Counted from the first letter of the stretch, positions 7,323 to 63,294 are shown. The stretch: 64,000 bases of DNA from an uncultured Eubacteriales bacterium (GCA_964587625.1 CAZPLU010000005.1:10091-74090), one strand, 5' to 3'. Numbers and translations: made by a program. Notes: generated by a model from the sequence alone, not told the origin.

Positions 7323-7391
7323 TTTTTGCGATTGTCCAAACAGCGGTATTTAGGTATAATGAAACACGTAGACGCTTTTCGGAGATTTAAC

Positions 7392-14486: not shown

Positions 14487-14501
14487 CTTGTTGTGCCCCC
14501 T

Positions 14502-16163
14502 TTAATTCATATCGGAGTCGCCGTCTTCATGCAGTTGCATGATGGTCGGCTTATCGATTTCGAGTTGAATCTCTCTCTCGTCGAATCGGTGCATGATCTG
14601 ACGCAGAGTGATGCCGTGGGATGCCGCGACTTCAAGCGCATAGCTCTTCTTTTGCGGGGCACCCGTTTTGATCTTGTAGGTACGGATGGCGATATCGCTT
14701 TCGGGATTGGGTTTGGTCAGGGTGATCAAGCTGCCGGTCTTTCCGGGATGCGCTTTTTCAATGGCCGGCAGAAAATCGTACAACTCGTAGAAGTGCGTCG
14801 CCACGATGCCCGAAACTTCGCTGTCAAGCAGTGTTTTGATCAAGTCGGCGCAGATCTGGGAGCCCTCCATCGGGCTTGTGGACGTCAGCGGCTCGTTCAT
14901 GATGACGATCGAGTTCGTCGTGACATTCGGGAGCATCTCGGTGATCTGACGGACTTCTTCACCCATCCGCGAGTCCTCATAGTTGTCGGTCTCGCCGCCC
15001 GAGAAGATCGTGAATATCGATTGCACCGGTGAGATCTTGACCTCTTCGGCGGGCAGGTAGAAGCCCAGCTGGAACAGCCAGATCAACTGGCCGGTGGCGG
15101 TCATATAGGTGCTCTTGCCGGAGCTGTTTGCGCCGGTCAGCAAGTAGAACTTGCCTTCGACCGGGAAAGTGATTTCGTTTTTGATCGTTTCGTTGTCGGG
15201 GTCAAGCGCCAGCAGTATCGGGTACATCTCAGTGGCTTGGAGCAGGAACTTTTCGGAGTCGACAACCGTCGGCTGACACATCGAGAAACCCTGATCGCGC
15301 AGGCGGCGGATCAGATTGAGCGCGCCGGCATAGAAAGAAAAGGCCTCGTCGACGTTCTGGAATTCTTGCAGACCCTGCGGTTTGTATTTGTTGCAGATGG
15401 CTCTGATTTCCTTGACCGATCCTTTATAGTGTTCGTGAATCATATTCAACGCTTCGTTCTGGAAAAGACCGAGGTTGGAGATGTTGGGCATCGCTTTCAG
15501 GTTTGAAACGCCCTTGATCTCTTCTTCTTTCCAATAGACGAAAATCGAGCTCTTGTCATACGGCTCGTGGGAGAACTCATCGACCGTCATCGATTGGAGA
15601 ATCTGTCCGTTTTTCAGGTTCGCGCCGAGGGCGAAACCGCGGATATCGAGCCAGGAGGTGTCAACCTTTGAAAAATCATGGAGCATCTTGTCGATTTCGT
15701 CGTTGTCATAATAGTCGTTGACCATCTTCTTGAGCACTTCGATGGCCTCGGATTTGGTCTTGACCTCGGGATCCGCGAACGCCTCGCGCAGTGCGTTCAT
15801 CAGATTGGCGTACAACGACAGGCGGCGATATTTCAGGCCGATCTGGCAGATGACGTTGTCACGGTATTCCATCTTGCGGGTGAATTCCTTCAAATAGGCC
15901 AGCGAGGACGGAATCAGGAAGAAGGCCTTTTCCAACTTCGGATTGGCGATGAGGTCGTCGATCATGCCGTTGCGGAATGCGATGATCTCGGCGTCGTTCG
16001 TCGTCAGGTCGTACAGCTGTTCGATCGACAGCGTGAATCCGGTGCCGAGGAACATATTTTCGACCAATGCCTCCAATCTGAGGTTTTGAATGTTCTTATC
16101 CCGTCTGACAACGTCAAATGCGATTTGTTCTTTATCCGCGGGATAGAGCAAGGGGTTTTTCAT
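14502..16163 (-). CDS. MutS-related ABC ATPase, paralogue A (core/clamp plus ATPase domains only)
   Basis: Walker A LLTGANSSGKSTYMTATG, Walker-B-like IVIMNEPLTSTS, H-loop VATHFYEL, and C-terminal YKIKTGAPQKKSYALEVAASHGIT as in MutS domain V. The start ATG overlaps the stop of the upstream M23 gene (ATGA). Confidence 0.8.
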   Translation of the reverse strand: MKNPLLYPADKEQIAFDVVRRDKNIQNLRLEALVENMFLGTGFTLSIEQLYDLTTNDAEIIAFRNGMIDDLIANPKLEKAFFLIPSSLAYLKEFTRKMEYRDNVICQIGLKYRRLSLYANLMNALREAFADPEVKTKSEAIEVLKKMVNDYYDNDEIDKMLHDFSKVDTSWLDIRGFALGANLKNGQILQSMTVDEFSHEPYDKSSIFVYWKEEEIKGVSNLKAMPNISNLGLFQNEALNMIHEHYKGSVKEIRAICNKYKPQGLQEFQNVDEAFSFYAGALNLIRRLRDQGFSMCQPTVVDSEKFLLQATEMYPILLALDPDNETIKNEITFPVEGKFYLLTGANSSGKSTYMTATGQLIWLFQLGFYLPAEEVKISPVQSIFTIFSGGETDNYEDSRMGEEVRQITEMLPNVTTNSIVIMNEPLTSTSPMEGSQICADLIKTLLDSEVSGIVATHFYELYDFLPAIEKAHPGKTGSLITLTKPNPESDIAIRTYKIKTGAPQKKSYALEVAASHGITLRQIMHRFDEREIQLEIDKPTIMQLHEDGDSDMN

Positions 16164-17850: not shown

Positions 17851-19407
17851 TTAAAAGACGTCAATTGCAATCTCAGCCCATTTGACCGTAAAGGGCTCGC
17901 GCATCGCGGCGATCTCGACGATATGCGCCGTCGGCATTTCCGGTCTGTTTGCGATCTCAAAAGCGTGGTATTCCAATCCGGGATAACAAGGTGCGGGAAG
18001 TGTCGTTCTCCCCGTATAGTTTAACTTTTCGGCGTCGAGAAAGACGTCGAAATCTGATTCGGAGAGTCCTCTGCCCTCATCAACCCCCAACACAAAGTAC
18101 AGTTTTGTCCCCGGCGCCACTTTGCCGACCGGGATGCGCAGCGTTTTATATTCGGATTTGCCGACAAAGGCCGGATTGCCGCCGCCGCGTTTTGCGCACT
18201 CGAGCGGAAGCGGGTTTTTATGCGGTATGCCGGGCGCTTTGACGTCGCGGTAGGTCACGATATGACGGCGCGGTTTGCCCGCCAGCGCATCGGTGGAACC
18301 GAGTTCTTTGAGCATCTGCCGATATTGTTCCCCGTGGAACAGTGCCTGTTCGCCCGAGGGGTCATCCATGTAGTTGAACAAATACACGAAATCCGCGCCC
18401 AGCGCGAGGTTGGCGGCGGCCGTGCCGCGCGCGGTCTCGACGCTGTTATATAAAACCGCTTTTTTCGGCTCGGTGAACATCGAATCGATCAAGACCTCCT
18501 GCCCCGCCGCCAGTTTGACCGGCTTTCCGGCGAGCAGCTTTTTCCAAAAATCGATCGGCATATCGTTGTCCGAGGTCGCCCAGCGCGGCGTGACCGTGAT
18601 TAAATCAACCAAACCCCGATCGACCCATTCAAAAAAATCGAAGCCGAGCCGCAGGGCAAGCAGCGGGTCCGCGGGCAGCCGCACGGCGATTTGAATCGGG
18701 TGGCCCCATTTTTGCTCCGCTTTGTCGGCTTCTTTTCGGACGCGCTCCATCAGTTCGGTGATGAGCTTCGCGCCCTGCTCCTCGCGGCCGATGCGCAGCG
18801 AATAGATTTCGCGCATCCAGTCGAGTTCAAGCCCGTGTATGTCGAATTTTTGCAAGACCTCGGCCGCCAATGCGAATAGGTGTTCGCGCACCTCGGGATA
18901 ACAAAAATCAAGGGCGTTGTCGTAGTAGTCGCAGGCCCCGAGCGTGTGGTGCAGGCCGCGGCGCTTTTCCTTGTTCTCGCGGAAAAAAGACGAGTGCAAA
19001 AAATGGTTTTCGTCGTCGTTGTTATGCACGTCGTTGGTGCGGAGCGAAATCCAGGGGTTTATGCCGATCTCGCGCAGGCGGGCGATCCAGATTTGATACA
19101 TGTCGAGGCCCTGATCGAAATAGATGCTTTTCAGCACCTCGACATAGCCGCCGTTGGACAGCGGGAGCTCCCCGTCGAGGTTTCCGCCCGCTTTTTTGAC
19201 GCGTTCATAATTGCGCAGCGCGTCGTCGCGGCTCTCGCACGGAAACCACGCGATGCTGCCGTTGACGTTGAGGAAGAAGTCGGTCACGCCCGTGTCTTGA
19301 TACTGGTCGATGAATTCATGCAGCTCTTTCAGGCCGACTTTGATATGATTGCGGTAACGTGTGTAAATAAAGTGATTGCAATCCTCGTTGAATAATATTC
19401 CGCCCAT
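17851..19407 (-). CDS. Hypothetical cytoplasmic protein, 518 aa; possible glycoside-hydrolase-like TIM barrel
   Basis: Long clean ORF with AAGGAG 8 nt upstream. No signal peptide. Segments such as FFLNVN, GLELDWMRE and FVYLFNY loosely resemble GH-like barrels, but I recognise no diagnostic motif. Confidence 0.45.
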   Translation of the reverse strand: MGGILFNEDCNHFIYTRYRNHIKVGLKELHEFIDQYQDTGVTDFFLNVNGSIAWFPCESRDDALRNYERVKKAGGNLDGELPLSNGGYVEVLKSIYFDQGLDMYQIWIARLREIGINPWISLRTNDVHNNDDENHFLHSSFFRENKEKRRGLHHTLGACDYYDNALDFCYPEVREHLFALAAEVLQKFDIHGLELDWMREIYSLRIGREEQGAKLITELMERVRKEADKAEQKWGHPIQIAVRLPADPLLALRLGFDFFEWVDRGLVDLITVTPRWATSDNDMPIDFWKKLLAGKPVKLAAGQEVLIDSMFTEPKKAVLYNSVETARGTAAANLALGADFVYLFNYMDDPSGEQALFHGEQYRQMLKELGSTDALAGKPRRHIVTYRDVKAPGIPHKNPLPLECAKRGGGNPAFVGKSEYKTLRIPVGKVAPGTKLYFVLGVDEGRGLSESDFDVFLDAEKLNYTGRTTLPAPCYPGLEYHAFEIANRPEMPTAHIVEIAAMREPFTVKWAEIAIDVF

Positions 19408-19437
19408 GATTTACGCTCCTTGAGTTCAATCTTCGGC

Positions 19438-19467
19438 AAAGAGAAAGGCAAGCCGAAACGGCCTGCC
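19438..19467 (-). terminator. Possible terminator after ireB
   Basis: Minus strand GGCAGGCCG-TTT-CGGCTTGCC followed by TTTCTCTTT. Confidence 0.4.
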
Positions 19468-19487
19468 GTGCTGCTGATTCTTTTGTT

Positions 19488-19766
19488 TTAATCGGCGAGA
19501 TAGGACTTGAGCAGCGCCGTCAACAGCTCGTCCCGGTCGATCTTGCGAATCAGCGACCGGGCGTTTTTATAAGTCGTGATATAGGTGGGATCTTCCGACA
19601 GGATATAGCCGACGATCTGGTTGATCGGGTTATATCCCTTTTCCGCCATCGCGTCAAAAACGGCGGTCAAAATCTGTTTCATCTCGCCGTCCTTGTCGCC
19701 GGGGATTAAGAAGGGCTTGGTCGGCTCGGATTGCGTCAATTGATTGACCGGATTATTTTCGTTCAT
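19488..19766 (-). CDS. ireB: IreB family regulatory phosphoprotein (UPF0297)
   Basis: [49 protein letters not shown] is the hallmark UPF0297/IreB core. Start at MNENN, 8 nt after GGGAGG. Confidence 0.85.
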
Positions 19767-19880
19767 GCATCGCACCTCCCGGAGACATTTGCTGTGATGG
19801 ATATCATTATTATACCTTATGCTCGTCCGAATTGCAATATGATGATTTTATTTTTGGCACAATCCGCCAATTTCAGGCGA

Positions 19881-19916
19881 TAAAAATATCCGAACGGTCA
19901 AAAACCGTTCGGATAC
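19881..19916 (-). terminator. Intrinsic terminator (minus strand)
   Basis: 12-bp stem TATCCGAACGGT-TTTTTG-ACCGTTCGGATA followed by TTTTTAT on the minus strand. Confidence 0.65.
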
Positions 19917-20251
19917 TCATTGTTCTATGCTCTTTTTATCACAATGACGCCTTTTTTCTCACGGCGAACCAGAGTTCGACGTAGCCCTTTTTCCCGTCTC
20001 CGCCGTAGACCTCGAGGTTGAGCCCGCCAACCTACTCGTATTCCACCGTCGGCAGCCAGCCCGAAAAGAAGTTTTTATACAGCGTATTGCAGACGCGCGG
20101 CGACCGTTAAAACCAAGATATATATGGACTTCTTTAACATCATGTGTGCCTCCTATCCGTTTTGATGATATCTCAGATGCGAAATGTTCAAAGTATGGCT
20201 CCTTAAAACTTTCGCGTACATACCCGATCGGAATGGATTCACGCTCCGGCG

Positions 20252-21007
20252 TCACCGGTCTTCGTACAGCGTTTGCTTGAATTCCTCATAGGTCATCGTG
20301 ACCTCGCCCTCGGCGAGCGGGCCGAATTTCCCGTCCCCGAGGTACCGCATCTCATACCGCCGTTCGATCACTTCATCGTCCGGGATCTTATCCACGTTGT
20401 CGGTCAGGTTTCCGTAGCCGTCCCTCAATTCGATCTCGGCGATCCCATTGCTGGTGCCGGCGAATATCGACGGCCCGTGATACCGCCGCGTGCCCTGAAA
20501 AATCAGCCGGTCCCCTTCGATCCGGAAGTGGATATAGCCGTATTGTTCTATGTCGAAATGCGTGAGATACATCCCGTTACCGTCCAGGTCGTGAATATGC
20601 AACAACACGTTTCCACCGGTGTCGATCACGTAAAAATTCATGCCTGTGACATCGCCGCCGGAATTCACGACGAGCAGGATCAGATCGTCGAGCGCTTGCG
20701 CCGACGAAACGCCCCAGCACTCCCTGATCGCGACGGGCCTGCCGTCGATTGTCAGCGCCGGCGCCCGCGTGTTCGGGCCCGCGTAGGACAGCGTCAGCTC
20801 CACGGTTTTGCTTTTGCATTGCACCGACGCGGCCGCGGCGCCCCCCTCCGCGGGCAGGTCAAAGACGTCGCCGCCGATGAGCGCGCCGACATAATAGCTT
20901 CCGGCGTTCTCTTGGGAAGAAAGCGCCGATGAAACATTTCCTCTTTCCCCGCACCCGCAGAGCAGGACGAAAATCAAAATGACCGCGTAAAATATCTTTT
21001 TTGGCAT
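20252..21007 (-). CDS. Hypothetical lipoprotein
   Basis: Lipobox MPKKIFYAVILIFVLLCGCGERGNVSSALSS. No recognisable catalytic motif. Confidence 0.6.
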   Translation of the reverse strand: MPKKIFYAVILIFVLLCGCGERGNVSSALSSQENAGSYYVGALIGGDVFDLPAEGGAAAASVQCKSKTVELTLSYAGPNTRAPALTIDGRPVAIRECWGVSSAQALDDLILLVVNSGGDVTGMNFYVIDTGGNVLLHIHDLDGNGMYLTHFDIEQYGYIHFRIEGDRLIFQGTRRYHGPSIFAGTSNGIAEIELRDGYGNLTDNVDKIPDDEVIERRYEMRYLGDGKFGPLAEGEVTMTYEEFKQTLYEDR

Positions 21008-21047
21008 AATATACACTCCCTGATTAATGTAATTGGCCCTCTGTTCA

Positions 21048-22469
21048 TCAATTTGTTTCTGCCCATGGTGAATTCGCATAGAATGATTGATGATCGCACG
21101 ATAAGACGATGGAGCCGTCTTTGTCAAAAGAATATGTAATAATGGCGTCGCCCTCTCCGGTTCCTTGATCGACGGTAATTTTATCAGGTGAAACCTCGAT
21201 AAAGTACATGGAACGGCTCAATAATTTGCTTCGTTTTGTTTGCAGATCGTAGATCATCAGAGAACTTTTAGAAAAATTACACAAAAAGTAACGGTCGTTG
21301 ATCCAAACGGCGCCGCCGAAAAAGGGGCTTGTCAAAATTGTAAAATCGGGTTCGCTTCCGTCTTTATAAAGGACGTTAAATCCGGTGACGAGCGGCGAAG
21401 TCCAATCTTGATTATCAACAAGGATAACATTGCCGTCGGGCGAAACCACGCCCTCTTCTGCCGCCCGTTGTGCGGCTTCGGCTTTTTCGTGAATACGGTT
21501 TTGCTCTTTTATAAAAACCAGATCGTCGGTCAATTGGTATTCGATCAGCACGTTTCCGTCCCGATCGGCGATATCAGCCGTATTTTCGATTGACGGCAGC
21601 GAACCGGTGTTTCCGTAAATACGCAGGATGGGGCCGTTTTGTTTGCGATTATCCCATTGAATTTCGATTCCCGCCGTATAGGAGGCATAACCCACTTTTC
21701 CGGCCCGGCTTGTATATCTGTCTTGAAAAACCAACGCATAATGATAATTGTAATTTTGAAACCGCGCCGCGAAGTGCTCGGCCAGTTTTTCGGCCAGTTC
21801 GCGGGAGTACCCGCTCTCTTGGCAAAGCGCCTGCGCCTGTCGCAGGGCTTCGGCTTGATTCGCTTCGGCGAAAACAGGATAGACGGAAATTTCTTCAATC
21901 CGGTCGCTGCCAATAAAAAAGAGATAAAAGTCCTCCGCTCTGTACCCGAATAAGTACAATGAATCGTCGATAAACTGCGGTTTTCCCAAGCGGCTGATGA
22001 TTGCTTTTTTGGAACTTTTCATCGTAACGCCGTCTGCGATCTCGCCTTTATAATTTTGGTTCAATATAATGGTTTCGATATTCCCGACCGGTTCGGTATA
22101 ATATCCGATGGACTCCGGGTAATATGTAGTTATTTCGCTGTACTTGACATTGATTCCTTGATCAAAGTAAACGTCATATCGGTTGAAATAAGCGTCGCGC
22201 TTGCCCAAAACGGCCTGAGCGGAATCATGCTGCCATTCCATATCCATCAGTTGCTGCAAGAAGGAGTCGTTCTCAAAAGAGAGCTTTATCCGGCTGACAA
22301 CGTCTGCGGTGACAGCGTTTACGGCTTCGGAAGATGCAGAGGAAACATTGATTCCTCCTCCGCACCCGCAGAGTGCGACGACAGTCAAAATTAAGATACA
22401 TATGACCTTTTTCAATCCGCTCCATTCCTCCCGTCCATTTGCATTAAACTTTTTATCATTATTGATCAT
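21048..22469 (-). CDS. Hypothetical lipoprotein
   Basis: N-terminal LKKVICILILTVVALCGCGGGINVSSASSE lipobox, closely resembling that of the downstream gene. The rest is unassigned. Confidence 0.6.
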   Translation of the reverse strand: MINNDKKFNANGREEWSGLKKVICILILTVVALCGCGGGINVSSASSEAVNAVTADVVSRIKLSFENDSFLQQLMDMEWQHDSAQAVLGKRDAYFNRYDVYFDQGINVKYSEITTYYPESIGYYTEPVGNIETIILNQNYKGEIADGVTMKSSKKAIISRLGKPQFIDDSLYLFGYRAEDFYLFFIGSDRIEEISVYPVFAEANQAEALRQAQALCQESGYSRELAEKLAEHFAARFQNYNYHYALVFQDRYTSRAGKVGYASYTAGIEIQWDNRKQNGPILRIYGNTGSLPSIENTADIADRDGNVLIEYQLTDDLVFIKEQNRIHEKAEAAQRAAEEGVVSPDGNVILVDNQDWTSPLVTGFNVLYKDGSEPDFTILTSPFFGGAVWINDRYFLCNFSKSSLMIYDLQTKRSKLLSRSMYFIEVSPDKITVDQGTGEGDAIITYSFDKDGSIVLSCDHQSFYANSPWAETN

Positions 22470-22492
22470 AACCTGTTCCCGTACCAATCTTG

Positions 22493-41611: not shown

Positions 41612-42160
41612 TCATGTTGCGTCTCGAAAAACGAGTGTTTTGCACAAAGCCGACTTGACGCCGAACGCGGCGGTGGCTTTGGCCAAGTCGAACGGGATGA
41701 ACGGAAACACGCAGATTGCCGACGCCGCCGCAAAACCGGTGCCGGTCACCTTGCAAAACCAGAGCGTTCCCAACCCGTAGCACAGCAGCAGCGAAACGGC
41801 GACGCCGAGCCAATAGCCGTACCAGCGGCCTTTGAACGCTTTTAACAACCCAGACATAGCCGGCGCCATCAGCGGATAGGCCATCAAATAGCCGCCGGTC
41901 GCGCCCATCAGCACGCCGACGCCCGCGCCGAAGCCCGAAAATACCGGCACGCCGACCGCTCCGATCAGGATATAGGTCAGTGTTGAAACGGTCGCCGGGA
42001 GCGGCGGCAGGATCGCCGCAGCCAAAAAGACGCCGAGCAGCGCCATGGTGATCGGCACCTGCCCGATCGGAATGGTGACGATCGAAAGCGCGCACAAAAT
42101 GGCGGCGAACAGGCCGCACAGGATGATGATTTTGAGTTTGGATCGGGGCGATTTCATCAT
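41612..42160 (-). CDS. bioY: Biotin ECF-transporter S component BioY
   Basis: IPIGQVPITMALLGVFLAAAILPP and GATGGYLMAYPLMA are BioY hallmarks. Lies 22 nt after the mannosidase stop. Confidence 0.85.
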   Translation of the reverse strand: MMKSPRSKLKIIILCGLFAAILCALSIVTIPIGQVPITMALLGVFLAAAILPPLPATVSTLTYILIGAVGVPVFSGFGAGVGVLMGATGGYLMAYPLMAPAMSGLLKAFKGRWYGYWLGVAVSLLLCYGLGTLWFCKVTGTGFAAASAICVFPFIPFDLAKATAAFGVKSALCKTLVFRDAT

Positions 42161-42182
42161 TTTATTGCAAACTCCGAACAAT

Positions 42183-44864
42183 TTAAAACGTAAATTCGAC
42201 CGTCTTGATTTCGTGCGGTTTGAGCGACAATAACACCTTGCCGTCCTGAACCGTCAATGCGGCCTTTTTATTTCCGAGGAAATCCGTCTCGGCGGCTGTT
42301 TGAATCGGTTTGGAAAGGGAAAACACGGCGTCGTCGGGTTGTTCGGCGGGGTTGAAGACGCGCAGCACGCCGTTCTTTTCGGACTTGAGCGCCAGCGCCG
42401 AAACCGCGCAGCTCTCGCTTTCGAGCGCGAAGAACGACTGCTCGGCATTCAAAGCGCCCGCGTGGACGCCGGTCTCGAAGGCCCGCAGCCCCGATTGATA
42501 AGCGACGCCGTTTTGCAAGGCCTTTGCGGGGGTTAGCGCGTTCGAAAACGCGGCGGCGTATTCAAACGCCAGCTCGGCCTGCATTTGCCCCATGTCGGCT
42601 TTGGGCTTGCAGACCTCGTTCGGGAACGCCCGGAACAGCGTCAGCGCAACGGTGCGGTCGGACTCGGTGACTTCGACCTCGTACAGCCCCTTGCTGTAAA
42701 GCGCGAAGGCGTTTTCGCCGTCCTCGAGAAAGACCGCGCCCTGCGTCGGGTTGACATTGGTCTCGATTTCGGCGGACTTGTCGTTGTTCGCCTTTTTCAC
42801 GTCCCATCTCTGCATGTCGAACGGCGTCCGGGTGTAAAATTCCCCGCTCTCGAAGCCCGTCGGGAACAGCACACGCAAGCGGTGGTCCTCGATTTCATTG
42901 TCAACCGTGGTTTGAAACGTGATCGTTTCGCTGCCCTTCAAAACCGTCGCGGTGGTGCGCAGTTCGAGCGTCTTGCGTTCGGTCGAGCGGGTCTTATCAG
43001 CCGGGTTATATTTTTCGGGCAGTTCGAATTTATGGGTCAGTTCAAGTACGGCGGCAAAAGGCCCGTCTGACAGCACGGCGAAGCCCGCGCAGCCGCCGAA
43101 AGTCGAAAACTCCGCGTCTCCCGCGGGCTTGACATAGTTCCAGCCGTCGCCGACGTCGCCGCAATCCTCGAAGGCCAGTTGGTTAAAATAGACCTTTCCG
43201 GTCTTTTTATCGGTCACCGTCAGCCCGCCGTTTTCGAACGCGACGGTCAAAACGCCGTTGTCCCAAACATTGCGGGCGGCGCGCATCGTGCCGCCGTAAC
43301 GCGAGGCGTCGGGCCGGTCGTTGCGGTACTCCCCGTCCCTTGGCATTTCGTAGTGTTCATATTTGACTCCGAGCGTAGTATAACCGCCCGCCGGAATTTT
43401 CAAACAGGCGGCGATTGCGACGTTTTCCTTTTCGTCGAAGCGGATGAGCTTGTGGATGGGGCTGACGGGTACCTGATAGACGCCGCCGACCGAGAGGATC
43501 TGATATGGGATTTCGGCCCCGTTTTTGTCGAACAATTTGAAGTTTTTATAGTCGCCCTTCGGTAACGCGAGCGTGAGAGCCGCATATCCCGAGACCGGTT
43601 TTTGCGAGGGGTTGAATACGGCGAACGCGGCGTCGCTTTGCAACGCAGAGGTGTCGATGTTTTCGGCGATCTGTTCGAGCGCGTCGGTGGCCATGCGCTC
43701 GCCGATGCGGAGCGCCTGATTGAAACGGAAGATATTGTCCGCGTGGATCTCGGTGGCCGAACAGCCGCAGATCGAGTCGTGCGGGTGGTTTTGCAACAAG
43801 TATTTCCACGCCTGCTTGAAAAAGCCGGCGCGCGGCAGCGGGTGGCGGATGTAAAAATCCCGTCTCGGATTTTCGATCATCGAGGACGCGAGGTCGAACG
43901 GCTCCGCCCACGCGGTCAGCAAATTTTCGCAGGCGGAATTCATCTGCTTCAAATGCACCATCGAGGACAGCACGTTTTTGAGCACGATGTTGTTGAGACC
44001 CTTTTGACCGACGTTGTAAAGCGAGCCCTCGATTTTTTGCAATTCGGGGCGTTCGGATTTAAAGGTTTTTTCAAATTCGCCGAAAGATGTTTGGATAAAT
44101 TCGTGCTCCGAGAAATGCCCGTTCAATTTTTTCAAAATTTCCGGCAGGCGCGGCTCGGCGTCGATGTGGTCGACCCCGTCCATCATCAGCAGGCAATTAC
44201 AGACGGCGGCTTTTTCGGAGCGTCCGAGCATCTCCCGCGCGCGGTGGAACAGCTCCTTGTCTTCGTATTCCCTGCCCTCGAACGGCCAGCGGATCGAAAA
44301 ATAGAAATTGCCGTAGGTGCGGTCGATGTCGAGCTTGAACGCGGTGATCTCGCTGCCGTCCGCGCCGACCCAGCAAAAAGCATCCTTCGGGAAATCGCCG
44401 ATGCCTCGGATGACCACGGCGGATTCAAAGCCGAAGCCCCTGACGATTTGGGGGAACTGGGCGTTGTGGCCGAAGATGTCGATGACATAACCGGTCTTCA
44501 TCGGCTCGGCGTGAAATTCTTTGCAAATTTCATGACCCTTTTGCAGGTTGCGCACCAGCGACTCGCCCGAGATCAAAAATTCGTCGGGCATGACGTACCA
44601 AGGACCGATGACGAGTTTGCCCGCGTCGATCAAGGCCTGCATGCGCGCCCGGTTCTCGGGGCGGATCTCCAGATAATCCTCGAGCACGATGGTCTGGCCG
44701 TCGGTGTGGAACACCTTATATTCGGGGTCCTGTTCCAAAATCTCGAGCAGCTCGTCGAACATGCGCACGAGCCGGAACCGATAGCTCTGAAAGGTCTCGT
44801 ACCACTCCCGATCCCAATGCGTGTGGGAGACGACAAAACACTTTTTCTTCTTGTTTTCGGCCAT
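42183..44864 (-). CDS. GH38 alpha-mannosidase (cytoplasmic)
   Basis: N-terminal VVSHTHWDREWY, plus FHTDGQT and GPWYVMPDEF. About 890 aa. Start at the Met 7 nt after AGGGGGA. Confidence 0.85.
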   Translation of the reverse strand: MAENKKKKCFVVSHTHWDREWYETFQSYRFRLVRMFDELLEILEQDPEYKVFHTDGQTIVLEDYLEIRPENRARMQALIDAGKLVIGPWYVMPDEFLISGESLVRNLQKGHEICKEFHAEPMKTGYVIDIFGHNAQFPQIVRGFGFESAVVIRGIGDFPKDAFCWVGADGSEITAFKLDIDRTYGNFYFSIRWPFEGREYEDKELFHRAREMLGRSEKAAVCNCLLMMDGVDHIDAEPRLPEILKKLNGHFSEHEFIQTSFGEFEKTFKSERPELQKIEGSLYNVGQKGLNNIVLKNVLSSMVHLKQMNSACENLLTAWAEPFDLASSMIENPRRDFYIRHPLPRAGFFKQAWKYLLQNHPHDSICGCSATEIHADNIFRFNQALRIGERMATDALEQIAENIDTSALQSDAAFAVFNPSQKPVSGYAALTLALPKGDYKNFKLFDKNGAEIPYQILSVGGVYQVPVSPIHKLIRFDEKENVAIAACLKIPAGGYTTLGVKYEHYEMPRDGEYRNDRPDASRYGGTMRAARNVWDNGVLTVAFENGGLTVTDKKTGKVYFNQLAFEDCGDVGDGWNYVKPAGDAEFSTFGGCAGFAVLSDGPFAAVLELTHKFELPEKYNPADKTRSTERKTLELRTTATVLKGSETITFQTTVDNEIEDHRLRVLFPTGFESGEFYTRTPFDMQRWDVKKANNDKSAEIETNVNPTQGAVFLEDGENAFALYSKGLYEVEVTESDRTVALTLFRAFPNEVCKPKADMGQMQAELAFEYAAAFSNALTPAKALQNGVAYQSGLRAFETGVHAGALNAEQSFFALESESCAVSALALKSEKNGVLRVFNPAEQPDDAVFSLSKPIQTAAETDFLGNKKAALTVQDGKVLLSLKPHEIKTVEFTF

Positions 44865-44886
44865 GACCATTCCCCCTGATCGTTTT

Positions 44887-45798
44887 TCAAATTCCCAAAT
44901 CGGCGAGGTTTTGCTGGTGCTGCTCAAAGGTCTCGGCGTAAGCATAAACGCCGGCGGCGTTCGCCGCGAAAAAGAGGTCGTTGGTTTCGAGGGGATTCAG
45001 CGCGGCCTTTATGGCGTCCATGCCCGGGTTGCAAATCGGGCCCGCCGGAAGCGCGGGGCATTTGTAGGTATTATAATATTCGTTATAACGGTTGATATCG
45101 CCCGTGATATATGGTTTAATGAATTTTTCGACATAGTTGATCGTGACGTCGCATTGCAGCTTCATGCCGGAGGAAAGGCGGTTGTGCAACACCGACGAGA
45201 CACGGCGCATCTCGCTCTTGACGCCGCACTCCTTTTCGATGATCGAGGCGATGGTCAAAATTTGGTCGACCGAATAACCCATTTCCGCCGCCTGTTCGCG
45301 CAGCTCGTCGCTCCACTTGGCCTCGCCGTTGCGTAAAAACCGCCCGATGGCGTCCTGCGGCTTCATGCCGTAATAAAACTCGTAGGTGTCGGGATAGAGA
45401 TAGCCCTCGAGCAAAAAACAACGATGTTCATTTGATTCGATGGCATCCACCAGCGGGTAGTAGGTATAATCATAGGTCGCTGCGGTCTTCCAAAGCTGCT
45501 CGGATTTACACACCCCGTTCTCCTCAAGCAGCTTGAAAATCTCAGACATGGTCATGCCCTCGGTGACGGTCACAAAAACCGTGTTTGGCCGGGAGGAAAT
45601 CGTCTGAGGCGGTACTTCCGCTGCGGATTCCGCGCTTGTCTCGGAATTTTCGGCAATATTTCCCGAGGTCTCTCCCGATGCCGCGACCGATGGCGCGGAG
45701 GGATTACTGAGTAAAAATCGGATCTGCTCACAGCCGAGGGTTGTGAGGCACAAGCCGAGCATTAAAAAGAACATGATCGCCGGTTTCAAGCGCTTCAT
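44887..45798 (-). CDS. mltG: Endolytic murein transglycosylase MltG (YceG family)
   Basis: N-terminal anchor/lipobox-like MKRLKPAIMFFLMLGLCLTTLGC. YceG motifs ASIIEKE and YNTYKCPALPAGPICNPGMDAIKAAL. Confidence 0.85.
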   Translation of the reverse strand: MKRLKPAIMFFLMLGLCLTTLGCEQIRFLLSNPSAPSVAASGETSGNIAENSETSAESAAEVPPQTISSRPNTVFVTVTEGMTMSEIFKLLEENGVCKSEQLWKTAATYDYTYYPLVDAIESNEHRCFLLEGYLYPDTYEFYYGMKPQDAIGRFLRNGEAKWSDELREQAAEMGYSVDQILTIASIIEKECGVKSEMRRVSSVLHNRLSSGMKLQCDVTINYVEKFIKPYITGDINRYNEYYNTYKCPALPAGPICNPGMDAIKAALNPLETNDLFFAANAAGVYAYAETFEQHQQNLADLGI

Positions 45799-46523
45799 AC
45801 GTCTTTTTCAAGTTCATAACCGCACTCAAGCATATCCTCACGAAAAAAATCGAACATGTGCTTGTCGTCGTCGTGCAGATAACGCCCGACCGAATCGGTC
45901 CGCATCGGAATCTTGACCGGTTTTATGCCCAAAAAGCGCTCGATACGGCGCAGGGTCTCCTCCTGATCAAAAATCATATCCTCAAAACGCACCGAAATGG
46001 TATGCTGCGGCTTCGGGGTCACACGCACCAATTCGCGTTGATAATACCAGCTGATCGCGCGGTTGCGGCGGATGTCGTCGGTTTTTTCATACCGGATGCC
46101 GAAATCGTTGAGGTCGTCGGTCAGGTGGCTTCCCAGAATGCAGTCACGCGGGTCGCGCACCCAATGGATATATCTGATGTCGGGGAACATCTTGACGATC
46201 CACGGATAGACCAGCGTGGTCTCGGGGATCTTCCAACCCTTGTTTGGGTTTGGGCTGGCAAACACCGATTTGAGATAGCTTGTGATCAGGCGCTTGAAGT
46301 CCCCGGTCGGCTCCATCGAGAGCACCTGCGAAAAATCCCATTTCAGACCGCCCTCAAAACGGACGTATTTTGCCATTTCGCGGCAGGCGTCGTACATGTC
46401 CTCCGGCGGGAGCAGATCCCCCGAGACATTGAGCGGCTCCCCCATGAAAACGCCGCTTTGCGAGAGCGTGTGCGAGATCGCCCGCGTGCCCGAATGACCT
46501 CTGCCGATCACTGTTACCATCAT
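45795..46523 (-). CDS. Cytoplasmic PAPS-dependent sulfotransferase family protein (243 aa)
   Basis: 5'-PSB-like loop VIGRGHSGTRAIS near the N-terminus and a 3'-PB-like YIHWVRDPRD. AAAGGA RBS before MMVTV. The 467-aa ORF in the track is an antisense extension over cysC. The stop overlaps the mltG start (ATGA). Confidence 0.7.
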   Translation of the reverse strand: MMVTVIGRGHSGTRAISHTLSQSGVFMGEPLNVSGDLLPPEDMYDACREMAKYVRFEGGLKWDFSQVLSMEPTGDFKRLITSYLKSVFASPNPNKGWKIPETTLVYPWIVKMFPDIRYIHWVRDPRDCILGSHLTDDLNDFGIRYEKTDDIRRNRAISWYYQRELVRVTPKPQHTISVRFEDMIFDQEETLRRIERFLGIKPVKIPMRTDSVGRYLHDDDKHMFDFFREDMLECGYELEKDV

Positions 46524-46632
46524 ATGCCGAAATCCTTTCACCGGTTGTCTTTTTTGATAAACTGGTTGTCGAAATTTTGGGTCGACATCCTCTCGACATT
46601 CTACAACACCGGATGCGTTTTTGCAAGCCATG

Positions 46633-46666
46633 TTGACTAATCCACGACAAAGCTTTAGAATATAAT
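46633..46666 (+). promoter_or_regulatory. Promoter of cysC-cysD-cysN
   Basis: TTGACT - 17 nt - TAGAAT, with an overlapping TATAAT just downstream. Confidence 0.55.
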
Positions 46667-46697
46667 CGGTCTTATATCGACCGCAATCGGGAGGGTT

Positions 46698-47297
46698 ATG
46701 ACGGTGAATGAAAACGTGTTCCGGCAAGAGCGTTTGACCGGCGAACAGGACAGAATCCGGGCGAATGGACATAAAGGCGCGGTCGTCTGGTTCACCGGGC
46801 TCTCGGGCAGCGGCAAATCGACCGTCGCGGCGCTGGTCGAAAAGCGACTGACCGACGAAGGGCTTTGCGCCTACCTGCTCGACGGCGATAACCTGCGCCG
46901 CGGGCTCTGCGGCGACCTCGGTTTTTCCGACGCCGACCGCGACGAAAACATCCGCCGCATTTCGGAGGTCGCGGCGCTGTTTGAGGACGCCGGGATCATT
47001 GCCCTTGTCAGCGCCATCTCGCCGTTCGAGAAAATGCGCGCGTTCGCCAAGGGCCGCTGTAAGCGGTTTTTGCTCGTCTATATGAACACAGGCATCGGAA
47101 CTTGCGAAAAGCGCGACCCGAAGGGGCTGTACGCCAAGGCGAAGCGCGGTGAACTCACCGGGTTTACGGGCATCGACGCGCCCTATGAAATCCCCCAAAA
47201 CCCCGATTTAATATTGGATACCGAAGCAATGAACGTCGAGGAATGCGCCGATGCGGTGATTGCGTTTATCAAAAAACAAATAACACCCGTTGAATAA
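46698..47297 (+). CDS. cysC: Adenylyl-sulfate (APS) kinase
   Basis: VVWFTGLSGSGKSTVA P-loop, LLDGDNLR and SAISPF. A GTG at 46704 is an alternative start. Confidence 0.88.
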   Translation: MTVNENVFRQERLTGEQDRIRANGHKGAVVWFTGLSGSGKSTVAALVEKRLTDEGLCAYLLDGDNLRRGLCGDLGFSDADRDENIRRISEVAALFEDAGIIALVSAISPFEKMRAFAKGRCKRFLLVYMNTGIGTCEKRDPKGLYAKAKRGELTGFTGIDAPYEIPQNPDLILDTEAMNVEECADAVIAFIKKQITPVE

Positions 47298-47336
47298 TCC
47301 GTTTTCGAAAAGATCATGATTTAAGGAGATACTTTC

Positions 47337-48218
47337 ATGGACCATCTCGACCGGCTCGAGGCAAAGAGCATCCACATCATCCGGGAGGCCTACAGCCAAT
47401 TCAAGTCGCTGTGCATGCTGTGGTCGATCGGCAAGGACAGCACGGTGCTGCTGTGCCTGGCGCGCAAGGCGTTTTACGGGCACGTCCCCTTCCCGCTCGT
47501 CCACATCGACACGCATTATAAGATCCCGGAGATGATCACATACCGCGACCGCCTTGCGCTATCTTGGAATTTGGATATGATCTACGGCGAAAACGCCGAG
47601 GCGCTGGCCGAAAAACGCACCTTCCCCGACGGCAATCTGTCCCGGATCGAGTGCTGCAAGGCGCTCAAGACCGAGGCGCTCGCGCACACCCTCGCGGGCG
47701 ACTGGCCGCGCTACCGGATGAACCACGCGCTCGGAAAATATGAGATCGACGGCAACACCGAGCCATACACCGGCGTGATCGTCGGCGTGCGGGCGGACGA
47801 GGAGGGCAGCCGCTCGAAGGAGCGCTATTTTTCGCCGCGCGACAGGCACAACGACTGGGATGTCGGCGATCAGCCGCCGGAATTTTGGGGGCAATACAAG
47901 ACCGATTTCAAGCCCGGCACGCACATCCGCATCCACCCGCTGCTGGACTGGACCGAACTGAACGTCTGGGAATACATCCGGCGCGAGAACGTGCCGGTGG
48001 TCTCGCTCTATTTCGATCAGGGCGAGGGGAAGCGCTACCGGTCGCTGGGCTGCCGGCCCTGTACCAAACCGGTCGAATCGACCGCGAAAAACCTCGACGA
48101 GATCATCGAAGAGCTGAAAACCGGGAAATTTTCCAACATCGCCGAACGCAGCGGGCGCGAGCAGGACAAGGAGGACGGCGGCGGGCTCGAAGAACTGCGC
48201 AAGGACGGGTACATGTAA
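47337..48218 (+). CDS. cysD: Sulfate adenylyltransferase subunit 2
   Basis: [15 protein letters not shown]...[14 protein letters not shown]-loop, C-terminal [15 protein letters not shown]. Confidence 0.9.
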
Positions 48219-48352
48219 CGTGAAATCCCCTCACGTTGTGAGGTCTTTCACGTCTGGAAAAAGGCGCTTCACCTTATTTATTTAATCCGTATTATCGCGC
48301 CTTTTTCATCCCTGTAAAAATTTTTCCCTATATATCCCTATATAAATAAAGC

Positions 48353-50164
48353 ATGATGGAGAATAAAATGAATTCCATATCCAAAGACGAACTCATGAAC
48401 ATCGTCATCGTCGGGCACGTCGACCACGGCAAGAGCACCGTGATCGGCCGCCTGCTCGCAGACACCGGTTCGCTGCCCGAGGGCAAACTGGAACAGATCA
48501 AGGAGATGTGCCGGCGCAACGCCAAGCCGTTCGAATACGCGTTTTTGCTTGACGCGCTCAAGGATGAGCGCTCGCAGGGCATCACGATCGACACGGCGCG
48601 CTGCTTTTTCAACACCGAAAAGCGCAAGTACATCGTCATCGACGCGCCCGGACACATCGAATTTTTGAAAAACATGATCACCGGCGCCTCCCGTGCCGAC
48701 GCCGCGCTGCTGGTCATCGACGCCGCCGAGGGGGTGCGGGAAAACTCCCGCCGCCACGGCTATATGCTGTCGATGCTCGGCATTCGGCAGGTGTGCGTTT
48801 TGATCAATAAAATGGATTTGGTCGATTATGACCGCGCGGTTTTTGAGCGGGTTCAAAATGAATACGGCGAATTTTTGGCCCGGATCGGCATCACGCCCGA
48901 GGGTTATATCCCGGTCAGCGGTATGCAAGGGGACAATATCGCGCTTGACGGAAAAACGAACATGCCCTGGTATGGCGGGCCGACCGTGCTTGACACATTG
49001 GATCGGTTCATCGCGACCGCGCCGCCCCTCTCCCTGCCGTTCCGCATGCCCGTACAGGACGTCTATAAATTCACCGCCAAGGGCGACGACCGCCGCATCA
49101 TCGCGGGCACGGTCGAGACCGGAAAACTCATGGCCGGCGACGAGCTGGTCTTTTATCCGAGCGGCAAAAAGACCGGCGTCAAACGCATTGAGCCGATGAA
49201 ATCCGATGAAGCGCAAGGCATCGCAAAGGCCGGGTATGCCACCGGTTTTACGATGACCGAGCAGATCTACATCCGCCGCGGCGAACTCTGCACCAGAGCA
49301 GACGAACCCGCGCCGCTGGTCGGCAATTTATTGAAGGTCAATATCTTTTGGCTCGGCAACACGCCGATGACCGACGAAAAGTCCTATTTCCTCAAGACCG
49401 GTTCGGCCAAGGTCGAATGCCGGCTCGAGGAGATTCTGAGCGTGATGGACGCCTCGACGCTCCGACAGGTGAAAAAAGACCGCATCGACAAATACGACGT
49501 CGCCGAGTGCATCCTCTCGACCGACCGCCTTGTTGCCTTTGACAACGTCGGGGAACTGGCCGTGACGGGGCGCTTCGTCATCGTGGACGATTATGAGATC
49601 TCGGGCGGCGGCATCTTCACCGACACCGTCCAAAGCCGCCATCTCGGCACCAAGCGCAAGCTCGAACTGCGCGACATCAAGTGGGAAAAAAGCGCGGTGA
49701 GCGTGGCGGAACGGCAGCGGCGCTTTGGGCAGAAGCCCGCCATCGTCGTGATCACGGGCGCGGAGCACACCGACAAAAAGACGCCCGCGAAGGCGCTGGA
49801 AAAATCCCTGTTCGAAAACGGAAAAAACGCCTATTACCTCGGCATCGGCAGCGTGCTTTACGGCATGAACGCCGACCTCGACCCGCAAAACCGCGAAAAG
49901 CGCGGCTCCGAGCACATCCGCCGCCTCGCCGAAACCGCGAACATCCTGACCGACGCGGGGCTGATTCTGGTCGTGACCGCCACCGAATTAAGCGAATACG
50001 ACGTCGAGACCATCAAACTGGTCTGCGCCGGAAAGCCGGTGCTCACGGTCTGGCTGGGCGACCCGCATAACACCGACTTGATTTGCGACATGGCGCTGGA
50101 CGAACACAACCCGGACATCAGCCGGGAGATCGCGAAAAAATTGCAAGCAGACGGTATTGTTTAA
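48353..50164 (+). CDS. cysN: Sulfate adenylyltransferase subunit 1 (GTPase) fused to a degenerate APS-kinase-like C-terminal domain
   Basis: G1 [10 protein letters not shown]3 DAPGH, G4 NKMD. The C-terminal ~160 aa aligns by eye to CysC, but the P-loop reads GAEHTDKK and LDGD reads LGIG. Confidence 0.85.
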
Positions 50165-50171
50165 ATGCATC

Positions 50172-50197
50172 AAAAAGCGGGGAAATCCTCGCTTTTA
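50172..50197. terminator. Terminator after cysN (usable in both directions)
   Basis: AGCGGGG-AAAT-CCTCGCT stem with an A-run before it and TTTTAT after it. Confidence 0.55.
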
Positions 50198-60911: not shown

Positions 60912-62195
60912 TTACTTGCCCTCGATCGAAATTCGTTTCATATAACGCCGCAACGGAAACTCGCCGTCGTGGGGCATACCGCAATATTGATTGGACATCT
61001 TTTCGCCGTCTGTGACGCGAACGATGCCCGTTTTGAAAAACAAGTTCTCTAAGCGCTCCCGATCCGCCGGATTGCAGATCAACGCGACGGTCTGAAGGTG
61101 ATTTTTATACGGCAGCAACGCGGACAGAATCCGATTTTGCGGCAGCGGCTTTACCCAACAATTTCGGAATTGATAGGATGCCGTGAGCGCGCTGCCGGGA
61201 TAGGCAATCACACCGCAATGATCCCCTCTGAAGATCTGTTTTTCAACCAAAGCCGACTCCAGCGCCTCGGTATATAACTCCAACGTCTTTTGAGCTGTCA
61301 AAAACGGATCATCCATTCGCGGGTATTCAGCGGATTTGCGCTGTAAAATTTCAAAAAACCGCGCGGCGAATGTTTTTACCTCGCTATAATCGCCGGTGTC
61401 GAAAAAAATGCCCTGGCACGAACTGCATAACAACTGCTCGGTTTCGCAGATGTTTTCGGCGATACCCTCCAACTCGGCGTCGGACGGGTTGCCCGAGACA
61501 TAGGCAAAACTGATTTTATGCCCCCATTCGATGACGCGGGTGTTCGGCGCGGCCATTTTCCGCACGGCCGAGATCGCGGCGTCTCCGCCCCAGACGACGA
61601 CAGCGTCGGCGGCATCCACCATTTTCCGAATGGCTTCGAAATCCTCTGACGGGACATCGAAAACGTATATATATTGCGAGAGTGAAGGTTCGAGCTTTAT
61701 CAACTCACGCATGATTGCAACGGAAAGACCGTCGTCGCCGCCGGGCAATTTGAGTATATTGATATTGCCGGTCAAAAGCCCCTCGATCACGCTGTAGGCG
61801 GGCAGCGCGTCCAGGTTGCCCGCCGCGATGTGAAACAATGTCCCGAGCGGTTTCCACTCCTGGCACACCTTGCCGCTTTCCGGTGTCGCCGCCTGACCGA
61901 ATGAGCCGTCAAATTCAAATTCAAGGCGCTTTTCGAGAAATTTTTTGGACAACATCCGCGCCGCTTCCGAGAGTTCCCGTTCGGCTTCTTTCTTGGAAAT
62001 TCCGCGTTCAAGCAACAGCGGCAGATACTCCCCGGTTTTGAGTTTATCCGAGAGCATATCGCAGGCGAAAACCACTTTTTCAACATTCAACGGTTCGCCG
62101 GAGAGCGTATTCGGAATGGATAACTGCAGCCGCTGCAGCGCTTCATGGGCTTGGATATCGTCCAAAAGCTGTCCGCCGATCAGGTTCTTATTCAT
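60912..62195 (-). CDS. LuxC-like acyl-CoA (fatty acyl) reductase
   Basis: Size, position immediately downstream of and overlapping the LuxE homologue, and an aldehyde-dehydrogenase-like core (LFHIAAGNLDALP, VVWGGDAAI, LLCSSCQGIFF with a candidate catalytic Cys). Confidence 0.65.
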   Translation of the reverse strand: MNKNLIGGQLLDDIQAHEALQRLQLSIPNTLSGEPLNVEKVVFACDMLSDKLKTGEYLPLLLERGISKKEAERELSEAARMLSKKFLEKRLEFEFDGSFGQAATPESGKVCQEWKPLGTLFHIAAGNLDALPAYSVIEGLLTGNINILKLPGGDDGLSVAIMRELIKLEPSLSQYIYVFDVPSEDFEAIRKMVDAADAVVVWGGDAAISAVRKMAAPNTRVIEWGHKISFAYVSGNPSDAELEGIAENICETEQLLCSSCQGIFFDTGDYSEVKTFAARFFEILQRKSAEYPRMDDPFLTAQKTLELYTEALESALVEKQIFRGDHCGVIAYPGSALTASYQFRNCWVKPLPQNRILSALLPYKNHLQTVALICNPADRERLENLFFKTGIVRVTDGEKMSNQYCGMPHDGEFPLRRYMKRISIEGK

Positions 62196-63294
62196 GGCCC
62201 GCTCCTTTTAACAACTCCGATGCCTCGGCGGTGCAGGTCTTGATTCCGCCGACACCCGCGCGGCCTTTGAGGTCAAAATACGGGGCCGGAATGCCGCACC
62301 CGCATTTTTGGGCGGGGAAAACGACCGCGAGGTCGTCGGTCACAATGCTTACAAGCGGCATGCTGCCGACCAAGGGCGTTATAAAACTCAAAAGCCCGAT
62401 CTGTCCTTCGGGCACGGGTTCGAGCGTGCCGACATCCCGAATGAAAACCCGGCTGTAAATCGGCACATGAAAATGCCCGTTTTTGCACTTGACATAGGGC
62501 AGCGGATGCTCGACCGCGCTGAAAAATTCAAAACAGTTTTCACGCGAAATGCCGAGTGTTTTTTCGGCTGCCCGAAACAGGGTTTCGCTGTCGATCTTTT
62601 CGCCCGAAAATTGTTTCCAGCCGCCGCCGAGCAGCACTTTAGAATGCGGGTTCAACTTTAACGATATACCCTGCTTTTCGAGTTCGCCGACCAAAAACCA
62701 CAAATAGGACGGAAAGCCGACCAGCCGCACGGGAAAGCCGCTTTTCGCATACCGGAGCAGTGCTTTTTTCGTGCCTTCGGGGTTCGGCGCATAACCGCCG
62801 CCGGTATCTTTGAGCGCGTATTCCCTGTGCAGGGCGGGTGCGAACCGCGTCATGCCGGAAGCCGTTTTGATCGCACCCATCTGCGTATGCGCACTCGGCT
62901 CATAGCCCAAAACCAGATAATTCGTCGGTAAAACGGAAATGAGCTTGTGATAGGACAAAAAACGGGTCATCATGGCGATGCCGAGGTGCATGGACTTTGC
63001 GTCAAATCCGACCGCACTCCGTTCGCCTTTTGTGCCCGAAGAAGTCGCATTGACCGACAATTTTTCTTCCGGCATCGAAAAAAGAGGGTTTCTTTTGAAA
63101 TAGAGCGTGGGCAATACGGGGATTTTATGCAGGTCGCGTTCGGTTTTGACATTGTCCGGCGAAAACCCGAGCGATTGCAGGATGCTTGAATAATCGGGAC
63201 AATGTTCCATATGGAACAATAAATTTTCGCGGATCGCCCGTAAAAACAGATCCGCGGTGTTTTGGGTGTCATAGGGATTTTTATGTAAAAACAA
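62188..63294 (-). CDS. LuxE-like acyl-protein synthetase (adenylate-forming)
   Basis: IPVLPTLYFKR...TSSGTKGERSAV, LLGGGWK and GLLSFITPL...IVTDDLAV match blocks I recall from Photobacterium LuxE (IPVFPTSVFK, TSSGTRG, ITGGGWK, GLLSYMD, IVTDDIG). Confidence 0.75.
   Translation of the reverse strand: MFLHKNPYDTQNTADLFLRAIRENLLFHMEHCPDYSSILQSLGFSPDNVKTERDLHKIPVLPTLYFKRNPLFSMPEEKLSVNATSSGTKGERSAVGFDAKSMHLGIAMMTRFLSYHKLISVLPTNYLVLGYEPSAHTQMGAIKTASGMTRFAPALHREYALKDTGGGYAPNPEGTKKALLRYAKSGFPVRLVGFPSYLWFLVGELEKQGISLKLNPHSKVLLGGGWKQFSGEKIDSETLFRAAEKTLGISRENCFEFFSAVEHPLPYVKCKNGHFHVPIYSRVFIRDVGTLEPVPEGQIGLLSFITPLVGSMPLVSIVTDDLAVVFPAQKCGCGIPAPYFDLKGRAGVGGIKTCTAEASELLKGAGHE

Follow-up and report, generated by a model that had tools for sequence, protein, structure and literature searches.

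Does a cassette of sulfate-activating genes in an uncultured Eubacteriales bacterium serve sulfur assimilation, or does it supply a sulfotransferase encoded next to it? The question arises from a 64,000-nucleotide stretch of DNA (GCA_964587625.1 CAZPLU010000005.1:10091-74090), called the window below, in which all positions are counted unless a related locus is named. There, the genes cysC, cysD and cysN form one transcription unit, and a gene for a putative sulfotransferase (ST) belongs to a second, divergent one (Table 1). A sequence-only reading of this DNA had proposed that the locus serves sulfation and not sulfur assimilation. The comparative analysis supports this proposal, and the locus is probably a self-contained sulfation module: the ST gene is recurrently linked to cysC, cysD and cysN (30 of 80 species loci), and CysC and CysH exclude each other among the close relatives of CysD. 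In such a module, CysD and CysN would convert sulfate into adenosine 5'-phosphosulfate (APS) by a GTP-driven ATP sulfurylase activity, and the stand-alone CysC would phosphorylate APS to 3'-phosphoadenosine 5'-phosphosulfate (PAPS). Then, the divergent cytoplasmic ST would move the sulfo group from PAPS onto an acceptor, with release of 3'-phosphoadenosine 5'-phosphate (PAP).

Profile matches, sequence motifs and the predicted fold all identify the ST as a genuine sulfotransferase of the PAPS type. It matches Pfam Sulfotransfer_3 (PF13469) with 58.5 bits against a cut-off of 27 and Sulfotransfer_1 with 24.4 bits against a cut-off of 22, whereas the NCBIfam scan returned no family model for it. 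The 5'-phosphosulfate-binding loop GRGHSGTR occupies residues 8-15 and the 3'-phosphate-binding motif WVRDPRDC residues 122-129. Both motifs had been picked out beforehand (as GRGHSGTR and WVRDPRD); they are present and invariant across 32 homologues, in whose alignment the invariant stretches are GRGHSGTR, G-W-K-x-P-E-T-T, W-x-R-D-P-R-D-C (with R124-D-P-R-D128) and V-G-R. The AlphaFold2 model of the protein has a predicted local distance difference test score (pLDDT) of 91 and a predicted template modelling score (pTM) of 0.87. When it was compared with the PDB by Foldseek, the 38 best matches were all sulfotransferases, with a TM-score of at most 0.59 and an identity of at most 19%. The best of these are an uncharacterised protein of Alicyclobacillus (3rnl), TPST1 and TPST2, the ST domains of CurM and of an olefin synthase, and heparan sulfate 3-O-sulfotransferase 1. 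Searched by sequence against solved structures, the ST gave no match, and a profile search gave marginal matches to TPST1 and TPST2 only (E about 0.002-0.02). The protein has neither a signal peptide nor a membrane segment and is thus predicted to be cytoplasmic.

The gene had been described beforehand as a divergent sulfotransferase-family gene for a protein of 243 amino acids (aa). Its orientation and family hold, whereas the length has to be corrected to 242 aa, because 46524-46526 is a His codon and the homologues all begin with the residue that corresponds to the Met encoded at 46523. A longer open reading frame (ORF) of 467 aa, starting from a TTG at 47198, was considered for the ST gene and rejected, since it runs into cysC on the other strand and the inner Met is where all homologues begin.

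The family to which the ST belongs is uncharacterised, yet widespread and highly conserved. A collection of 5.8 billion proteins holds 3554 clusters with relatives (E <=0.001), and the family amounts to 995 representative clusters at the 50% identity level. The best 120 of the 3554 clusters are 67-88% identical to the ST, and the few of them with a named source come from Oscillospiraceae, Clostridia or Chloroflexi. With one genome taken per species, relatives were found in at least 553 species. The best 80 of these are mostly rumen, gut and digester Clostridia, and also include Chloroflexota, Armatimonadota, Verrucomicrobiota or Lentisphaerota, and Planctomycetota with an ST identity of 60-65% (taxa are those given in record titles). 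The CysD of the window is only 32-38% identical to that of Armatimonadota, far below the identity of the ST, which argues for horizontal spread of the ST, strong constraint on it, or both. An exact-sequence look-up of the ST in the assembly collection returned no record, and literature searches on the family or its neighbourhood found nothing relevant.

Linkage was first assessed from the ST side, in the best 80 species loci, against which the proteins of the window were run by tblastn. A cysC, cysD or cysN gene lies within 10 kb of the ST gene in 30 of the 80 loci, and in 21 of the 48 loci that extend at least 3 kb on both sides. Three arrangements, in three phyla, account for these cases. 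Twenty-five Bacillota loci have the divergent layout of the window, with gaps of 84-374 bp and, in one case, 1592 bp. Four Armatimonadota loci carry a convergent CysD-CysNC pair of a different type (CysD 32-38% identical), which in L082 and L084 stands only 21-27 bp from the ST gene. One Victivallales locus has ST, cysD and cysNC in one direction. These architectures are independent of each other, which argues for a functional coupling between the ST and PAPS synthesis, and the co-occurrence of the ST with cysDNC proposed as a check on the sulfation idea is thus borne out in related genomes.

In 20 of the ST-anchored loci, the first gene of the cassette encodes a CysC-CysQ fusion of about 460 aa (APS_kinase plus Inositol_P). 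CysQ removes PAP, the by-product of sulfotransfer. Examples of this fusion are found at 2750-4129 (-) of L046 and in 19 other ST-anchored loci, as well as at 6869-8251 (+) of L103 and in other CysD-anchored loci. A TauE permease gene follows cysN in locus type P0039 (L001-L008), which was examined in detail.

The converse view was obtained from the 80 metagenome loci closest to the CysD of the window (76-96% identical), whose neighbouring genes were classed by clustering, spot Pfam checks and tblastn. Where the locus extends at least 1.5 kb upstream of cysD, CysC occurs without CysH in 30 cases and CysH without CysC in 10, and in no case are both present; over all 59 informative loci, the two never occur together. 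Of the 34 CysC loci, 20 include CysQ and 8 include this ST family, whereas the ST is found in none of the 12 CysH loci, and the CysH cassettes of close CysD relatives lack CysC, CysQ and this ST altogether. What they carry instead, in varying combinations, is a Pfam-checked NIR_SIR-TusA sulfite reductase and, as read from N-terminal sequences, sulfate ABC transporter genes, an O-acetylhomoserine sulfhydrylase, ThiF/JAMM genes and an Rrf2 regulator. The CysH-type loci are clearly assimilatory operons. Sulfotransferases of other kinds also occur in CysC loci, namely a Sulfotransfer_1 protein in L152, Sulfotransfer_2 proteins in L153 and L157, and a 400-aa sulfotransferase-like protein with a GMHRSGTS loop in L139, and the CysC loci L118 and L160 contain genes that resemble exopolysaccharide-synthesis genes by their N-terminal sequences. 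As read from these gene contents, CysC, with or without CysQ, marks within this CysD/CysN clade a cassette predicted to make PAPS for sulfation, and the cassette of the window is of that type. Some CysD matches seemed 220-370 nucleotides too long; rather than an insertion in CysD, this most likely reflects an extension of the match into the neighbouring paralogue CysH.

The dependence on CysC is sharpened by the state of CysN. From about residue 450 (about 49700-50164, +), CysN ends with an APS-kinase-like domain whose Walker A motif is degenerate (GAEHTDKKT), whereas that of CysC is intact (GLSGSGKST). An active CysNC fusion was considered and ruled out, since the C-terminal domain departs from the GxxGxGKS/T pattern; against the bifunctional CysNC model NF004035, CysN scores 441 bits, below the cut-off of 715. 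CysC is thus predicted to be the only catalytically competent APS kinase of the cassette, which the CysN tail could not replace. The same degeneracy runs through nearly the whole CysN clade, in CysH-type and CysC-type cassettes alike. Because the tail is degenerate, the separate CysC alone would decide whether PAPS is made. The most likely role of the tail itself is in channelling or feedback through binding of APS or PAPS, and it may be a regulatory or channelling domain.

The two units diverge from a 174-bp spacer with back-to-back promoter-like sites. Profile matches and the promoter scan agree with the earlier observation that cysC, cysD and cysN lie on the plus strand behind TTGACT-17-TAGAAT. 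In an alignment with five related loci, both promoter cores are kept and the remaining spacer has diverged. Conserved back-to-back promoters in one common region suggest that the ST and cys units are probably co-regulated. An Rfam search of the short leader before cysC revealed no S-box, T-box or other riboswitch element.

Table 1. Features of the locus and of the related four-gene module (positions in the window; those of the module are given by related locus)
Feature	Position	Strand	Basis
ST (sulfotransferase)	45795..46523	-	Pfam Sulfotransfer_3; start and stop codons read from sequence
mltG (YceG family endolytic transglycosylase)	44887..45798	-	Pfam YceG PF02618, 208 bits; TIGR00247, 142 bits (cut-off 103)
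GH38 (glycoside hydrolase family 38) alpha-mannosidase-like gene	42183..44945	-	Pfam GH38 N-terminal, middle and C-terminal domains
bioY (energy-coupling factor (ECF)-type biotin S component)	41612..42181	-	Pfam BioY, 108.5 bits; last in the co-directional string
cysC (APS kinase)	46698..47297	+	Pfam APS_kinase, 203 bits; NCBIfam adenylyl-sulfate kinase, 233 bits (cut-off 163)
cysD (sulfate adenylyltransferase small subunit)	47337..48218	+	Pfam PAPS_reduct, 135 bits; NCBIfam CysD subfamily, 349 (cut-off 195)
cysN (sulfate adenylyltransferase GTPase subunit), 603 aa	48353..50164	+	Pfam GTP_EFTU and partial APS_kinase; TIGR02034 CysN, 343 bits
Promoter-like site, ST operon (TTGCAA-17-TAGAAT)	46598..46626	-	Consensus scan; hexamers conserved in 5 related loci
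Promoter-like site, cysC-cysD-cysN (TTGACT-17-TAGAAT)	46633..46661	+	Consensus scan, 10/12 match; conserved in 5 related loci
Four-gene module	L085 7703-11827; L072 7729-11733; L063 7630-11727; L002 10793-14045		

Dedicated PAPS supply has precedents. In rhizobia (NodP/NodQ with NodH) and in mycobacteria (CysDNC with Stf0), a dedicated ATP sulfurylase and APS kinase provide PAPS for a carbohydrate sulfotransferase. In NodPQ and CysDNC, the APS kinase is fused to CysN and active, whereas the window has a degenerate fused domain and a stand-alone CysC. Stf0 (1tex) is only a distant structural match of the ST (Foldseek rank 31). A closer parallel in gene order is the Bt_0411-Bt_0416 cluster of Bacteroides thetaiotaomicron, in which PAPS synthesis genes adjoin the cholesterol sulfotransferase BT_0416 (BtSULT) (PMC9417993, PMC13449962). 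In both cases a cytoplasmic PAPS-dependent sulfotransferase, established or predicted, is encoded right beside genes of the cysC, cysD and cysN type, in what is read as a dedicated sulfation cluster of a gut anaerobe. The Bacteroides cluster belongs to another phylum, whereas the genes of the window diverge from back-to-back promoters and are accompanied in the window by neither a transporter nor a PAP phosphatase gene. As its architecture matches the logic of Bt_0411-Bt_0416, of NodPQ/NodH and of CysDNC/Stf0, the kind of system present in the window is already known.

The claim that such systems are poorly described in Clostridia is roughly right, with two qualifications: the architecture has been established in Bacteroides (PMC9417993), and ErSULT, a hydroxy fatty acid sulfotransferase of the Sulfotransfer_3 family from Eubacterium ramulus, was described in 2026 (PMC13449962). 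ErSULT resembles the ST in coming from a gut bacterium of the Clostridia, in its dependence on PAPS (predicted for the ST) and in its broad Pfam family. The main text of its description mentions no gene cluster (PMC13449962).

These two enzymes suggest that the ST might sulfate a host- or diet-derived lipid, as BtSULT does with steroids and ErSULT with hydroxy fatty acids. Both are PAPS-dependent sulfotransferases of gut bacteria, one of them encoded beside PAPS genes (PMC9417993, PMC13449962), and many relatives of the ST come from metagenome-assembled genomes of rumen and gut. The family is, however, equally conserved (60-64% identity) in genomes of Chloroflexota, Armatimonadota and Planctomycetota, most of whose record titles name no host, and the genes near the ST encode sugar-active rather than lipid-active enzymes. 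The reported average size of BT_0416-type enzymes is about 370 aa (PMC10932419), whereas the ST has 242 aa and is thus probably not of that type. As for ErSULT, its predicted structure matches STF1 of Mycobacterium tuberculosis with a root-mean-square deviation of 1.08 A (PMC13449962), and STF1 was reported as its closest structure. For the ST model, STF1 (2zq5) comes only at Foldseek rank 43, with a TM-score of 0.49 normalised to the query (TMq) and 0.34 to the target (TMt) and 13% identity, and it is not among the results of the sequence or profile searches of solved structures. The ST therefore does not appear ErSULT-like, and a lipid acceptor of this kind is rather unlikely.

It is quite improbable that the locus serves ordinary assimilation, in which CysDN and CysC would supply reductases of PAPS and of sulfite encoded elsewhere and the ST would be a neighbour by coincidence. 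In E. coli-type pathways, assimilation canonically begins with CysD, CysN and CysC, and members of the same CysD/CysN clade are indeed found in assimilatory operons; the reductases could also lie in the rest of the genome, beyond the 64-kb window. Those operons (cysH-cysD-cysN-sulfite reductase; loci L126-L159) have a CysD 76-80% identical to that of the window and the same degenerate CysN tail. Yet they place CysH directly beside CysD, together with a NIR_SIR sulfite reductase, a sulfate ABC transporter and a sulfhydrylase, and lack CysC, CysQ and a sulfotransferase. CysQ and sulfotransferases accompany the CysC-type cassettes only, adjacency of ST and cys genes arose in three architectures and three phyla, and no S-box or T-box leader precedes cysC.

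Within the window, the absence of any PAPS/APS reductase or sulfite reductase gene, noted beforehand, was found again by two methods. Pfam, run across the 64 kb on the 47 ORFs that were judged to be likely genes (each at least 140 aa long), revealed no second PAPS_reduct domain, no NIR_SIR, no Inositol_P (CysQ), no TauE and no sulfate ABC transporter. A tblastn search of the window with the CysH, sulfite reductase, Sbp/CysTWA, TauE and CysK proteins of related loci matched only cysD, the CysH paralogue.

The ST gene is also physically tied to mltG, and this tie had been taken to point to an envelope precursor or glycan as acceptor. On such a view, the substrate of the ST would be lipid II, the nascent glycan strands or some other precursor of the wall, and the two genes would be coupled in translation because their products serve a common pathway. 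The overlap is real: the minus strand at 45800-45795 reads GTATGA, in which the TGA of the ST (45797-45795) and the ATG of mltG (45798-45796) have two bases in common (ATGA), and the two genes abut or overlap likewise in L089 and L090. Some relatives of the ST, about 41-53% identical, are moreover fused to glycosyltransferases of family 61 (GT61) or 4 (GT4). However, the ST-mltG-GH38 synteny is found only in L009, L089, L090 and L091, whose ST (88-91% identical) and CysD (91-96%) identify them as the lineage of the window itself, and mltG is near the ST in none of the 79 other species loci. The operon includes no other wall-synthesis gene, and the ST is predicted to be cytoplasmic whereas MltG, with its signal- or lipoprotein-like N-terminus, would act outside the membrane. 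As the synteny is confined to one lineage, the overlap is a genuine local operon feature that lends no support to an envelope acceptor, which is very unlikely.

Pfam matches agree with the earlier observation that a GH38 gene and bioY follow ST and mltG on the same strand, and bioY is also found in L089 and L090. The true start of the GH38 gene likely lies about 24-27 codons inside the listed ORF, as relatives align from residue 24-26 on. Its best NCBIfam match is mannosylglycerate hydrolase, below the cut-off of that model.

Sulfation of a peptide or protein tyrosine, as by TPST or RaxST, is the least probable of all and far-fetched, since TPST1 and TPST2, although the best profile matches among solved structures and among the top Foldseek matches (TM-score 0.49-0.59), are only 14-18% identical to the ST and are equalled in score by the uncharacterised bacterial ST, by the CurM and olefin-synthase ST domains and by heparan sulfate 3-O-sulfotransferase, and since no neighbour cluster resembling a precursor peptide, a protease or an exporter recurs near the ST (among ORFs of at least 90 aa).

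What the acceptor may be is best approached through the neighbours that the ST keeps in other phyla. In Chloroflexota and Armatimonadota, it is part of a four-gene module, the other members of which are a TIM-barrel protein of the AP_endonuc_2 family (266 aa), a member of the sulfatase family (about 470 aa) and a Gfo/Idh/MocA oxidoreductase (334 aa). The complete order is found in L063, L072, L077 and L085, and a partial or rearranged one in L081, L083 and L087. In the digester Clostridia L002, L013 and L015-L017, the ST gene is closely followed downstream, past a phosphodiesterase gene of convergent orientation, by those for the TIM-barrel, sulfatase-like and Gfo proteins, and the cys cassette stands on its opposite side. 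For each of the four proteins, identity is 55-62% between Clostridia and the other two phyla and 72-74% between Chloroflexota and Armatimonadota, which suggests that the module moves as a unit. In the window itself, tblastn with the TIM-barrel, sulfatase-like, Gfo, phosphodiesterase, TauE and CysQ proteins of relatives found no orthologues.

The sulfatase-family protein of the module has P-T-T-P-G-Y in place of C-x-P-x-R. It was therefore rejected as a true sulfatase: with this replacement, formylglycine cannot form, and a Thr nucleophile is probable.

Other genes near the ST also point to sugars. GH38 genes are found in the lineage of the window, in L061, L065, L074 and L078, in L085 and L088, and possibly, as a partial match, in L081. 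Leloir-pathway genes were read from N-terminal sequences, and a GH78-like hydrolase, a heparinase II/III-like protein, a major facilitator superfamily (MFS) transporter and an FGGY kinase were confirmed by Pfam. Among relatives with 37-54% identity to the ST, fusions occur with GT61 or GT4 glycosyltransferases, with TPR repeats, with a glucuronyl-esterase-like domain or with a methyltransferase. This context favours, on genomic grounds, a soluble cytoplasmic metabolite of the carbohydrate or polyol type as the acceptor, and argues against both peptidoglycan or lipid II and a host steroid. A bolder proposal, offered tentatively and more doubtful than not, is that the ST belongs to a horizontally mobile pathway common to several phyla, the core of which would be the TIM-barrel protein, an S1 sulfatase-like enzyme with Thr for the formylglycine cysteine, the ST and the Gfo/Idh/MocA oxidoreductase. 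Such a pathway may make or process an undescribed sulfated sugar or cyclitol, or it may use sulfation to generate a leaving group during carbohydrate metabolism in the cytoplasm; the lineage of the window would have kept only the ST and its PAPS supply.

Several points weigh against a self-contained sulfation module with an acceptor of this type. About half of the ST loci have no adjacent cys genes, so that the pairing is frequent and not obligate, and this ST is present in only 8 of the 34 CysC-type cassettes. The linkage counts come from the best 80 matches per scan, with many incomplete contigs and with ORFs called crudely, as the longest non-overlapping ones. A sulfate importer and a PAP phosphatase, both kept in the cassette by relatives, are missing from the window. 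A cysH and a sulfite reductase gene could be present elsewhere in the genome, and PAPS could then also feed assimilation. The enzymatic activity of the ST family is a prediction from sequence and fold; the carbohydrate-type acceptor is drawn from neighbours and domain fusions only.

Elsewhere in the window, a tetrahydrofolate (THF) riboswitch (RF01831, 91 bits) at 4064-4160 (-) lies upstream of a gene at 2171-3964 (-) that encodes a 597-aa fusion of a Mur-ligase/FolC-like domain with an ECF-type S component. Two tandem paralogues of 556 and 553 aa at 12816-16163 (-) have the MutS domain V ATPase only. At E <=1e-5, Pfam matches none of the three consecutive large ORFs (518, 291 and 479 aa) at 17851-22487 (-). 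Finally, a LuxC-like acyl-CoA reductase and a LuxE-like acyl-protein synthetase are encoded as a pair at 60912-63294 (-), adjoining an MFS transporter gene.

The mapping of sulfated metabolites from gut and environmental anaerobes is only beginning, and BtSULT and ErSULT are the only PAPS-dependent sulfotransferases of gut bacteria with assigned acceptors in the literature found. For this CysD/CysN clade in anaerobes, the present comparison offers a rule of annotation, according to which CysC by cysDN, with or without CysQ, indicates sulfation, whereas CysH by cysDN indicates assimilation. As the ST family is widespread (at least 553 species and 3554 clusters), 60-70% identical across phyla and often encoded with its own PAPS supply and PAP recycling, it would be a tractable target in the search for a new sulfated metabolite.

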